This document shows positions 7,390 through 56,563 of a stretch of 64,000 nucleotides of DNA, piece by piece. Each line of letters starts with the position of its first letter. Positions within the stretch are counted from its first letter, which is position 1. The stretch lies in NCBI RefSeq assembly GCF_050920415.1, contig NZ_CP169309.1. One strand, given 5' to 3'. The stretch is from Escherichia coli (GTDB lineage: Bacteria; Pseudomonadota; Gammaproteobacteria; Enterobacterales; Enterobacteriaceae). The notes beneath the pieces were generated by a model, which saw nothing but the letters and a program-made list of their open reading frames with translations, made no database searches and was not told the DNA's origin. A program made the translations under genes and the position numbers.

Positions 7390-8976
7390 TTAATGCTCGC
7401 GAGTCTGGTGGAACTGAACGTCCGGATAACGTTCCTGTGCCAGGCGCAGGTTGACCATGCTGGTAGCGATGTAAGCGAGGTTATCGCCGCCATCAAGCGC
7501 CAGTTGGCTTTCGTTCTTACGCTTGAACTCTTCGAATTTCTTCGCGTCCGCACATTCTACCCAGCGTGCAGTGGCAACGTTGACTGACTCATACACTGCT
7601 TCAACGTTGTATTCGCTCTTCAGGCGCGCTACCACCACATCAAACTGCAGCACACCAACCGCACCAACGATCAGGTCGTTGTTGGAGATCGGACGGAACA
7701 CCTGCACCGCGCCCTCTTCGGAAAGCTGTACCAGCCCTTTGAGCAGCTGTTTTTGCTTCAGCGGATCTTTCAGGCGGATACGACGGAACAGTTCCGGCGC
7801 AAAGTTCGGGATACCGGTGAACTTCATCATCTCACCCTGGGTAAAGGTGTCGCCGATCTGAATAGTGCCGTGGTTGTGCAGACCAAGGATGTCGCCCGGA
7901 TACGCTTCTTCAACATGCGAACGGTCGCCCGCCATAAAGGTCAGCGCGTCGGAGATCACCACATCTTTCGCGGTGCGCACCTGGCGCAGCTTCATACCTT
8001 TTTCATATTTACCAGATACCACACGCATAAACGCCACGCGGTCGCGGTGTTTCGGGTCCATGTTGGCCTGAATTTTAAATACGAAGCCGGTAAATTTATC
8101 TTCGCTCGCCTCTACGATACGGGTATCAGTCTGACGCGGCATCGGCGCAGGTGCCCACTCTACCAGGCCATCCAGCATATGATCGACGCCGAAGTTACCC
8201 AGCGCAGTACCAAAGAACACTGGAGTAATTTCGCCCGCAAGGAACAATTCTTTGTCGAACTCGTTAGACGCGCCTTTCACCAGTTCCAGTTCGTCACGCA
8301 GCTGCTGTGCCAGATCTTCACCAACCGCAGCATCGAGATCCGGGTTATTCAGCCCTTTAACAATACGGACTTCCTGAATGGTGTGACCTTTACCGCTCTG
8401 ATAGAGATAGGTTTCGTCTTTATAAAGGTGGTAAACGCCTTTAAACAGCTTGCCGCAGCCAATCGGCCAGGTGATCGGCGCACAGCCGATTTTCAGCTCG
8501 TTCTCAACTTCATCGAGCAGCTCCATCGGATCGCGGATATCACGGTCAAGTTTGTTCATAAAGGTGAGGATCGGCGTATCGCGCAGACGGGTAACTTCCA
8601 TCAGCTTACGGGTACGATCTTCAACACCTTTTGCGGCGTCGATAACCATCAGGCAGCAGTCCACCGCCGTCAGGGTACGATAGGTATCTTCCGAGAAGTC
8701 TTCGTGCCCGGGGGTGTCGAGCAGGTTAACCAGGCAGTCGTGATACGGAAACTGCATCACAGACGTGGTAATGGAGATCCCACGCTGCTTTTCCATCTCC
8801 ATCCAGTCCGACTTAGCGTGCTGGTTGGAACCACGGCCTTTTACTGTACCGGCAGTCTGAATGGCCTGTCCGAACAGCAGCACCTTCTCGGTGATGGTCG
8901 TTTTACCGGCGTCCGGGTGAGAAATAATTGCAAAGGTTCTTCTTTTCGCTACCTCTGCGGCCAAAAGGCTTGTCAT
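7390..8976 (-). CDS. prfC: peptide chain release factor 3 (hybrid: first ~21 codons supplied by prophage DNA)
   Basis: GTPase motifs [12 protein letters not shown] and DTPGHEDF; N-terminus [15 protein letters not shown] instead of K-12 [16 protein letters not shown]; the att core lies inside codons ~17-22. Confidence 0.9.
8915..8928. repeat. attL core (gggtgagaaataat)
   Basis: Identical to 56500-56513; joining the outer host flanks gives the uninterrupted K-12 prfC 5' sequence. Confidence 0.65.
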
Positions 8977-8992
8977 AATTGTTGTCTCTTTG

Positions 8993-9110
8993 ATTATGTA
9001 CAATCATATGTACAAAGAAAAATTCATGCCGCTGATTGTACATTTTGGAGGTATCAGAGCATAGCAGAACATGATCAGTAGGTGTATTTGTAGCCAAAGA
9101 ACATTTGTAC
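8993..9110. repeat. Int arm-type-like tgtaca repeats (P' arm)
   Basis: ttatgtacaatcatatgtacaaag, ttgtacatttt, tttgtacatgc; same motif clustered at 56276-56340 next to int. Confidence 0.4.
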
Positions 9111-9136
9111 ATGCAGCAATCTTTACTCTATTGACA

Positions 9137-9180
9137 CTGTTTATTCATACAGTAAAAAATAGTGCTGTATACAAATACAG
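9137..9180 (+). promoter_or_regulatory. two LexA (SOS) boxes overlapping the dinI-like promoter
   Basis: ctgtttattcatacag and ctgtatacaaatacag (CTGT-N8-ACAG); ttgaca -35 at 9131. Confidence 0.65.
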
Positions 9181-9195
9181 TATAGAGGGATTTTT

Positions 9196-9444
9196 ATGCG
9201 TATTGAGATCTGCATAGCCAAAGAGAAAATGACTAAAATGCCAAGCGGTGCTGTTGATGCGTTAAAGGAAGAATTAACTCGGCGCATCAGTAAGCGTTAT
9301 GACGATGTAGAAGTAATCGTAAAAGCCACCAGCAATGACGGGCTTTCTGTTACACGCACCGCAGATAAGGATTCTGCAAAAACATTTGTTCAGGAGACTC
9401 TGAAAGATACTTGGGAGTCTGCTGACGAGTGGTTTGTTCACTAA
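9196..9444 (+). CDS. dinI: DinI-family DNA-damage-inducible protein (phage copy)
   Basis: [31 protein letters not shown]...[11 protein letters not shown] aligns with E. coli DinI along its length. Confidence 0.85.
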
Positions 9445-54773: not shown

Positions 54774-55012
54774 GTTAACCCTCTTAAATAAAAAACTAAC
54801 TTTATCCAGATAGTGTCCGTTAAGAAGTTTTCGTTACAACTAAGTTTCTAGGTAAATCATGAATCGACCTATAGTATCAAAAACATTTGGTGGTAAACAT
54901 CTGCATTTATCAAATGGCAGGAGCGATTTAGGGGCATAGGGATAGTGATGATATCGATACCCGCCCCCTCTTATGTCAACACAATGGCGTAAACTTAACG
55001 CTCACATCTCGC

Positions 55013-56269
55013 TCAAAGTGTGCTAGGAGATTTGGTTATGTTCAGGTGATACAAACCGTCAGTTTGACAATTAACAATCGATTCAACCCTCTTCCACCAT
55101 GCCAGGTAAGCTTTACGCTGTTCTTCTAGATAATCACTCTTATCATAAACTTGCCATACCCCTGGCAGCTTATGACCAAGCATAATTTCTGCGATATGAG
55201 GCGCAGTAAGATCAGAAAAATTTGTTCGAGCTGTACGTCTCAAGTCATGAAGAGACCAATGAGGGAATTGATATCCTAAACACCGCCATGCGTACTGCAT
55301 TAAATTGTAAGGCAGCGACTGCAATGATGTCCGACCAACGGGTTCCCTGCTTCCTTCCTTAGTAAAAAGCATATCGGAACCATTGTTCATAGAGATAGCG
55401 TACTTTATAAGCTCTTCAACCGGTTCAATAATGGGCCGCTTTAGCGGTTCGCCTGTTATCTCCCCAGTCTTATGTCGTTCTGGTGGTACAGTCCATACTT
55501 TATTAATGAAATCAAAATCGTCCACCCGGGCGGTAATTAGCTCTGAACTACGGCAACCAAAATGCAGCAATAGTTTAATGAAGGCCCGGTATTTAGGAAC
55601 CATTCGAGAACCATCGATCGCAGCATAAAGGATTTTAATTTCATCATGTGTCAGAAACCGTTTCTTCTGACCTTTACGGATATCCATATCTTTACCCGTG
55701 ATATCCGACAGCGGGCGAGTTTCAATGAGCTTTCTCTTATACGCCCAGACATGGGCCTGCTTTGCGTTAATTAGCAATCGGTCTGCTATTGCTGGAGTCT
55801 TAGTGCTAAGAGGCTCCAGGACTTCTAACCAATCATGCAATGTAGCTGCATCGTGAGGGATATTCCCGATTTTAGAGAACAGGTGCAGCTCAAACGAGCG
55901 AAGTATCTGTTCAGAACCTTTTTTATTTTTTACACAATATGCTTCATACCAAGCACGGATCACAGACTCTACCGTCATGGCTTCAGTAGCTTTTCGTTTT
56001 TCAGCCTGCTTGACCAATCGTGGATTACGGTTTGACTCGAGTTCACCACGAAGACGGATAACTTCTTCTCTGGCCTCTTTTAATCCAGTTGCCGGGTAAG
56101 TTCCGATATCAAGACGCTCACCTTTCCCTGCCCATTGATAACGATATTGGAACACTACGCGACCTTTCGGTGATACTCTGACAGACAGACCATCACGATC
56201 GGATTTAACCAAAACCTTATCACGTTCCTTTCCAACGACTGAACGCAACCACGCATCAGACAGCGCCAT
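55013..56269 (-). CDS. int: tyrosine integrase (P4-like)
   Basis: 418 aa; C-terminal catalytic ...HDLRRT...LGH... ending in Y; adjacent to attR. Confidence 0.9.
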   Translation of the reverse strand: MALSDAWLRSVVGKERDKVLVKSDRDGLSVRVSPKGRVVFQYRYQWAGKGERLDIGTYPATGLKEAREEVIRLRGELESNRNPRLVKQAEKRKATEAMTVESVIRAWYEAYCVKNKKGSEQILRSFELHLFSKIGNIPHDAATLHDWLEVLEPLSTKTPAIADRLLINAKQAHVWAYKRKLIETRPLSDITGKDMDIRKGQKKRFLTHDEIKILYAAIDGSRMVPKYRAFIKLLLHFGCRSSELITARVDDFDFINKVWTVPPERHKTGEITGEPLKRPIIEPVEELIKYAISMNNGSDMLFTKEGSREPVGRTSLQSLPYNLMQYAWRCLGYQFPHWSLHDLRRTARTNFSDLTAPHIAEIMLGHKLPGVWQVYDKSDYLEEQRKAYLAWWKRVESIVNCQTDGLYHLNITKSPSTL

Positions 56270-56275
56270 TACTCA

Positions 56276-56440
56276 CCTTGTACAAATCGCAAAACACCTC
56301 TGCTGTTTTGTACATTATGTACAAGCATATGTACAGATTTTTGATGAAAGCAAGCTGATCGATTTAAAGTTACATGAAAGAGTTTTCAATTAAAGAAGCT
56401 ACATAACCAAATGTATTTAAATGAGTTACATAACTCAACC
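56276..56440. repeat. Int/accessory-factor binding repeats in the P arm
   Basis: tgtaca-containing repeats (56276-56340) and three a(a/g)(g/c)ttacat(g/a)a repeats (56363-56430). Confidence 0.4.
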
Positions 56441-56488
56441 TAAATTAACTGAAAGGATTTTGAAAGAGTAAAAGAGCTTTAATTTGGG

Positions 56489-56563
56489 CTTAATTATTGG
56501 GGTGAGAAATAATGGCAAAAGTGCGGCGCTTCGCCACCTCTTGCAAATAAGGAGACAACGTCA
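56489..56563 (-). pseudogene. prfC': displaced original 5' fragment of prfC (24 codons)
   Basis: Minus strand ATGACGTTGTCTCCTTATTTGCAAGAGGTGGCGAAGCGCCGCACTTTTGCCATTATTTCTCACCCC = [22 protein letters not shown], then phage DNA and a stop. Confidence 0.8.
56500..56513. repeat. attR core (gggtgagaaataat)
   Basis: Identical to 8915-8928. Confidence 0.65.

Follow-up and report, generated by a model that had tools for sequence, protein, structure and literature searches.

A lambdoid prophage inside prfC of Escherichia coli appears to supply a new start for the RF3 gene

What becomes of a conserved gene when a temperate phage integrates within its coding region? We addressed this question on a stretch of 64,000 nucleotides of Escherichia coli (contig NZ_CP169309.1 of assembly GCF_050920415.1; hereafter the window), where a prophage lies inside prfC, the gene for release factor 3 (RF3). 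Our reading, which we hold at a probability of roughly 0.9, is that a lambdoid temperate phage, carrying the prfC-type attachment (att) and integrase module of phages cdtI, 2H10 and Ayreon and of Shiga toxin (Stx) phages of the Stx1a and Stx2c types, integrated in prfC and regenerates RF3. A first-pass annotation made from the letters of the window had placed the insertion and proposed that the phage provides both a new N-terminus and a promoter. The features on which the argument is built are the following:

8915-8928, no strand assigned: attL core, reading ATTATTTCTCACCC on the prfC strand; crossover point in a three-way alignment with the attB of K-12
56500-56513, no strand assigned: attR core, the second copy of the repeat; where a genome has the site empty, its match to the attR probe starts exactly at 56500
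8929-56499, no strand assigned: prophage body, about 47.6 kb, described from the PGAP annotation of a collinear genome, PHROGs and a tRNA search
7390-8976, minus strand: hybrid prfC (RF3, 528 aa), codons 1 to 15/16 derived from the phage and the remainder from the host
8929-8976, minus strand: phage-encoded substitute 5' coding segment, from minus-strand translation and alignment with K-12
56490-56564, minus strand: native 5' fragment of prfC, left stranded, with 22 native codons followed by NN and a stop

The integration site was as first proposed. The 14-bp repeat GGGTGAGAAATAAT occurs twice in the window, at the two cores, with no third copy even when one mismatch is accepted (chance expectation 0.01; two matches in 0 of 100 shuffles). 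prfC lies on the minus strand, and the core spans its codons 18-22 (I, I, S, H and two nucleotides of P) rather than codons ~17-22 as initially given. In an alignment of the two junctions with osmY-prfC-yjjG-rimI-holD, the K-12 locus free of the prophage, K-12 prfC is identical at its 5' end to the attR side and in its 3' continuation to the attL side, and the switch falls at the core. The native start is thus the sequence at 56514-56564 and not the one at 8929-8976. Its ATG is at 56564, one nucleotide from the 56563 proposed before, and the frame is lost when translation begins at 56563. The native 5' fragment is indeed stranded at attR, downstream of yjjG, and its open reading frame (ORF) has the predicted 24 codons, although these are 22 native and two phage codons before the stop (56564..56490).

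Joining the arms in silico gave the same picture from both sides. The excision product (8600-8928 plus 56514-56900) matched K-12 along its full 716 nt at 98.6% identity and without gaps; excision by Int and Xis would restore wild-type prfC, as had been anticipated. The reciprocal attP, made from the joined phage arms (1186 nt), is contiguous in free phage genomes, with 96.5% identity over 100% of its length to Escherichia phage 2H10, 95.4% over 99% to Enterobacteria phage cdtI, and 97.1% over the first 70% to phage Ayreon. The int-proximal arm is also present at the ends of many records of Stx1a- and Stx2c-converting phages. The proposed mechanism is site-specific recombination by a tyrosine recombinase, in which the attP core ATTATTTCTCACCC would have recombined with the identical sequence in prfC codons 18-22. 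These codons stand at the start of the RF3 P-loop motif, in a strongly conserved stretch.

The gene that results is an intact ORF. From residue 8 to its end the hybrid RF3 is identical to K-12 RF3 at 520 of 521 positions, it scores 1086 bits against the TIGR00503 prfC equivalog (cut-off 467), and PGAP calls it intact in a 99.9% identical genome; prfC is still an intact ORF in the sampled lysogen genomes. Alignment and translation from 8976 on the minus strand agree with the earlier claim that the phage P' arm encodes an in-frame substitute for the prfC 5' end. The arm gives an ATG and 15 codons, keeping the invariant KRRTFA and altering the variable first 7-8 residues, so that integration would regenerate full-length RF3 with 528 aa in place of the native 529. 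The difference is confined to these first 7-8 residues (MTSLLAA in the hybrid vs. MTLSPYLQ in the native protein), and the DNA of the first seven phage codons is unrelated to host sequence. Among native prfC fragments from 19 other taxa the same first 7-8 residues are also variable and the following stretch is invariant. The same mini-ORF with the substitute start is also present in the attP of the free phages cdtI and Ayreon.

The codons between the new start and the core tell most about why the arm looks as it does. The phage codons for EVAKRRTFA differ from the host at eight nucleotides, all eight synonymous, and when eight substitutions were placed at random in these codons the peptide was kept in 0 of 200,000 trials. 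This indicates that the phage-borne prfC codons are under purifying selection on the protein rather than on DNA pairing, and it speaks for the hybrid RF3 being in use. One could instead see the likeness between prfC and the P' arm outside the 14-bp core as extended att homology serving recombination and not the rebuilding of a gene, since the cores of some integrases exceed the exact repeat and Ayreon has 17 bp identical to attB. However, past the core the DNA is identical at 19 of 27 positions while the protein is identical at 9 of 9, an in-frame start codon stands at the right distance, and the first seven codons are unlike host DNA. Since this pattern points to a coding constraint and not to a DNA-pairing constraint, we give extended homology hardly any weight.

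Two minor observations concern the same segment. The phage-encoded RF3 N-terminus is nearer to native Pseudomonas N-termini than to that of E. coli, which hints that the phage arm was captured from the prfC of another host. It also contains two AGA arginine codons, and the prophage encodes a tRNA-Arg(UCU) at 38290-38366.

Whether the regenerated gene is expressed is a separate matter, and it involves the region upstream of the new start:

8977-9140, minus strand: P' arm and new prfC 5' untranslated region (UTR), with four copies of TGTACA; a block common to phage Ayreon, which is without dinI
8997, 9009, 9037 and 9106: the TGTACA copies of the P' arm, from a hexamer count in the window
9691-9722, no strand assigned: bidirectional intrinsic terminator, a perfect hairpin with a 12-bp stem flanked by A and T runs

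Several points weigh against expression, and with it against the regeneration of a working gene. We scanned the prfC strand for promoters by consensus and position weight matrix over 8977-9720, taking as background the best scores of random 760-nt windows (8.65 ± 1.95). No minus-strand sigma-70 match in 8977-9200 rose above this background, and the best ones near the ATG scored at most 8.7, as for TTTTCT-17-CATAAT at 9021..8993, which equals the random-window mean. The sole strong match on the prfC strand (9690..9660, score 12.4) is antisense to dinI, at a distance of 680 nt upstream. A short purine-rich stretch accompanies the phage-borne ATG in the P' arm, and the hybrid gene has a weak Shine-Dalgarno-like element, AAAGAGA. 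E. coli can live without RF3 and would therefore tolerate a hybrid that is not expressed. In the literature, the dispensability of prfC in E. coli is on record (PMC2323221, PMC3850215), Ogura 2007 left the expression of hybrid prfC open for this phage class (PMC2323221), Bobay 2013 scored prfC as 'disrupted' (PMC3603311), and we found there no expression data for such lysogens.

These are the grounds for a rival view in which the insertion merely inactivates prfC, the hybrid being neither transcribed nor translated and the lysogens RF3-null. This view would leave the wholly synonymous differences in the phage-borne codons and the intact ORF of the sampled lysogens to be accounted for, and the same ATG and KRRTFAII design is retained in an ICE (integrative, conjugative element) whose Int is only 39% identical. 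Moreover, the SXT element, at the same site, is reported to supply a promoter and a functional N-terminus for prfC (PMC8409611). We consider plain inactivation improbable. The comparison of the junctions and codons indicates that prfC is regenerated rather than disrupted, which would correct its scoring in Bobay 2013.

For the regenerated gene, the dependence of RF3 on prophage DNA, as the first-pass annotation had it, is a sound inference, although the promoter it invoked does not appear near the new ATG as a match above background. The native promoter is 47.6 kb off and a strong terminator stands at 9691-9722, whose minus-strand reading gives the same hairpin followed by TTTTTT; prfC transcription would therefore have to begin within the prophage, somewhere from 8977 to about 9690. 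On account of this upstream terminator and of the SXT precedent, we infer that prfC is transcribed from a phage-borne promoter within 8977-9690. The terminator is also predicted to insulate dinI and hybrid prfC from the late operon of the tail fibres.

The ribosome-binding site (RBS) of the hybrid had been described as a mimic of the host one (gagacaac), and this did not hold. One copy of GAGACAAC, at 8981-8988, is on the minus strand; the other, at 56552-56559, is on the plus strand and runs antisense to codons 2-4 of native prfC, so that relative to prfC the two have opposite orientations; besides, two copies of this 8-mer are expected by chance in 64 kb (54% of shuffles). The true upstream regions of the new and native prfC starts share only AATTATGAC around the start.

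The TGTACA hexamer occurs ten times in the window, with eight of the ten copies in the two att arms (expectation by mononucleotide shuffling, about 15 per 64 kb). Repeats of the form (G/T)GTACA(A/T)A stand at equivalent positions in the P arms of distant relatives and in both arms of R997, an SXT/R391 element. In the phage and in R997 alike, two tandem copies spaced 12 bp apart end some 20 nt short of the prfC ATG that the element encodes, and the R997 pair is GTGTACAAA, as in the phage. The comparison of the P' arm covered close phages and R997; scans of IMG/VR for contiguous attP of distant relatives gave almost exclusively prophage ends with the native prfC' fragment. These repeats are probably arm-type sites of Int, and if they are, the new prfC 5' UTR overlaps Int binding sites.

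Next to this arm, and divergent from hybrid prfC, is a DinI-like gene:

9196-9444, plus strand: DinI-like gene (Pfam PF06183 DinI, 1.5e-19; 'DinI-like family protein' in PGAP)
9131-9180, plus strand: dinI promoter, TTGACA-18-AAAAAT, overlapped by LexA-type boxes at 9137-9152 and 9165-9180

The boxes have the form CTGT-N8-ACAG, in tandem and with TA-rich spacers. The earlier claim of an SOS-regulated dinI near prfC on the opposite strand is supported by the two boxes over the promoter, the plus-strand orientation and the Pfam match. Further good LexA-like boxes are found in the prophage at 39616-39631 and 43614-43629, near the starts of a DNA methylase gene and a KilA-N gene, which suggests that several prophage genes are under SOS control.

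At the other junction, the stranded fragment lies before the integrase gene:

56627-56654, minus strand: best native prfC promoter candidate (TTGCCT-16-TAAAAT, score 12.1), now directed at int
56270-56499, minus strand: P arm, with TGTACA at 56279, 56309, 56318 and 56330; layout kept in 19 prfC-targeting relatives
55013-56269, minus strand: tyrosine integrase of the IntSXT/P4-like type (Pfam Arm-DNA-bind_3, Phage_int_M, Phage_integrase)
54054-54773, minus strand: ORF of 239 aa of unknown function (phrog_8440, 1e-142), directly downstream of int and between the convergent int and xis
53577-53771, plus strand: excisionase (phrog_1553, 4e-36; weak HTH_17 match)

Integration would leave the native promoter, the RBS and the first 22 codons at attR as a dead-end ORF of 24 codons before int. 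The promoter candidate and this prfC' mini-ORF aim at int (ATG 56269) with a spacing of about 230 bp. The scan and folding gave no terminator between the prfC' fragment and int. In 19 distant relatives, prfC' and int are likewise on one strand and about 230 bp apart; it is xis that the fragment faces in SXT/R391. The integrase has the arm-binding (DUF4102/Arm-DNA-bind_3), core-binding and catalytic domains of the IntSXT cluster and is similar to SXT/R391 Int (39% identity to that of R997, BLASTP 1e-89). For the 239-aa ORF there was no Pfam or NCBIfam match.

Taken further, the locus could be rewired in both directions, with RF3 under a phage control region in about 13% of E. coli and the stranded prfC promoter constitutively transcribing int. 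The control region would overlap the Int arm sites (TGTACA pair at 21-38 nt before the prfC ATG) and stand 160-205 bp from the tandem LexA boxes; read-through into int is suggested by the lack of an intervening terminator and by the geometry kept in the 19 relatives. We hold this scenario to be unlikely as a whole. If it were true, the level of RF3, termination fidelity and post-peptidyl-transfer quality control could vary with lysogeny, Int occupancy and SOS induction.

The arrangement itself is already known, from SXT in 1999 and from the Stx1 and cdtI phages in 2007, and the locus described here adds no new principle. For the Stx1 phage of O103 in prfC, a changed RF3 N-terminus and the removal of the native RBS and promoter were described (Ogura 2007, PMC2323221). 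SXT/R391 ICEs at the same prfC site supply a promoter and an N-terminus, according to papers that summarise Hochhut & Waldor 1999. The integrases of the cdtI phage and SXT form one prfC-targeting cluster (Smyshlyaev 2021, PMC8138268), and prfC is a widely used Stx-phage locus where Stx1a and Stx2c phages integrate (PMC10132054).

The closest relatives are cdtI (AB285204), 2H10 and Ayreon, whose int N-terminus and attP DNA are 95-97% identical to this prophage; in cdtI and 2H10, as here, dinI adjoins attP. These three and the prfC-type Stx1a/Stx2c phages (the O103 Stx1 phage and the CC119 phages LC7278xx) share its lambdoid long-tailed architecture. Unlike in the cdtI and Stx phages, the cargo here includes TerB-like and DUF3927 genes, in the slot after the tRNAs, rather than cdt or stx, and the tail-fibre region diverges.

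SXT/R391, represented by R997, is alike in the prfC position used (AIISHP(D)), in an arm that gives a new ATG and an N-terminus ending in KRRTFAII, in an Int of the same three-domain architecture, and in convergent xis and int. It differs in its order att-xis-int, with int directed at att, whereas here int begins beside att and is directed away, and in a core two codons longer (HPDA). Moreover, SXT/R391 carries tra, setCD and setR and is conjugative, and the element in the window is a phage. The family is defined by an Int about 99% identical to IntSXT (PMC2791158). Here the identity to R997 Int is 39%, and the annotation of the 47.6-kb insert contains no tra or set genes of the conjugative backbone. 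Since Int is this distant and the conjugation backbone is lacking, the prophage would work like SXT/R391 ICEs while standing outside that family.

Other elements also place the att core in a conserved ORF and provide a substitute gene end that keeps the ORF open, as phages 21 and e14 in icd and the dusA elements do (PMC3603311, PMC8409611). The icd phages replace the 3' end and leave the promoter untouched, whereas in the dusA elements, in SXT and here it is the 5' end, promoter and RBS that are replaced. The locus is thus a clean textbook case of a mobile element that targets a strongly conserved stretch within the gene of a translational GTPase and pays with a spare gene start. Its wider relevance lies in the same module moving, in pathogenic E. 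coli, the phages of Shiga toxin and cytolethal distending toxin, and in its ICE cousin SXT/R391 spreading drug resistance in Vibrio and Proteus.

The module is common in the species. The int-attR junction was present in 699 of 5426 complete E. coli genomes (12.9%) and the prfC-dinI attL junction in 659 of the 5426 at a coverage of at least 80%; the remaining genomes have an empty site, with a match from exactly 56500. In O26:H11 11368 the attL match ends at 8937, and a different element in prfC was considered there and rejected, as the site is empty; local mismatches most likely account for the shorter match.

Beyond E. coli, we scanned one genome per species with the alignment of integrase homologues (80 loci). 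A prfC fragment cut just after AIISHP, about 230 bp upstream of int and on the same strand, was found in 19 relatives (47-83% identity) and at the E. coli locus (98%). The relatives span Gamma- and Betaproteobacteria, among them Pantoea, Serratia, three Pseudomonas, Marinobacterium, Methylomonas, Kangiella, Methylibium, Methylobacter, Rheinheimera, Marinicellulosiphila, Halomonas, Variovorax, Microbulbifer, and metagenome-assembled genomes of a Burkholderiaceae, an unclassified Enterobacterales and an unclassified gammaproteobacterium. AIISHP is identical in every fragment recovered, and so conserved a target stretch would explain how this integrase clade finds the same site across both classes. 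Relatives at 30-53% identity (Xenorhabdus, Photorhabdus, Morganella and other genera) had no prfC fragment beside int, and their target sites are presumably different. In Proteus mirabilis H63, an int of the SXT/R391 type is flanked by a prfC fragment and then element sequence; the fragment faces xis, with int convergent.

The body of the prophage is apparently that of a complete lambdoid prophage from an intact temperate phage. The window is collinear with E. coli MFDS1022581 (NZ_CP169399.1) at 99.5-99.7% identity, with 96.9% in the tail-fibre region. After DinI come the tail fibre genes, Lom, J, lambda-type tail and head genes and terminase. Further modules hold the lysis genes, a TerB-like gene, tRNAs, a DNA methylase, Q and the replication genes; then an immunity region of the ymfK/ymfT/ymfL type is followed by xis and int. 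The lambdoid gene set is represented by the Q antiterminator, a CI-like repressor and the lambda-type head, tail and lysis genes, and PHROGs matches include Q, the repressor, tail fibre and excisionase.

Neither the PGAP annotation of the collinear genome nor family searches gave a stx or cdt gene in the prophage. The slot where Stx phages carry stx has the following content:

38290-38543: tRNAs

After Q, the methylase and the tRNAs, what stands in this slot (37685-38543) instead of stx1 or stx2 is a moron, TerB-like and labelled 'tellurite resistance' (phrog_632), along with a DUF3927 gene. The PGAP annotation of the collinear genome also lists a PerC-family regulator (45044-45532, minus strand) and an Ail/Lom outer-membrane protein (12512-13111, minus strand), which are possible virulence-related morons.

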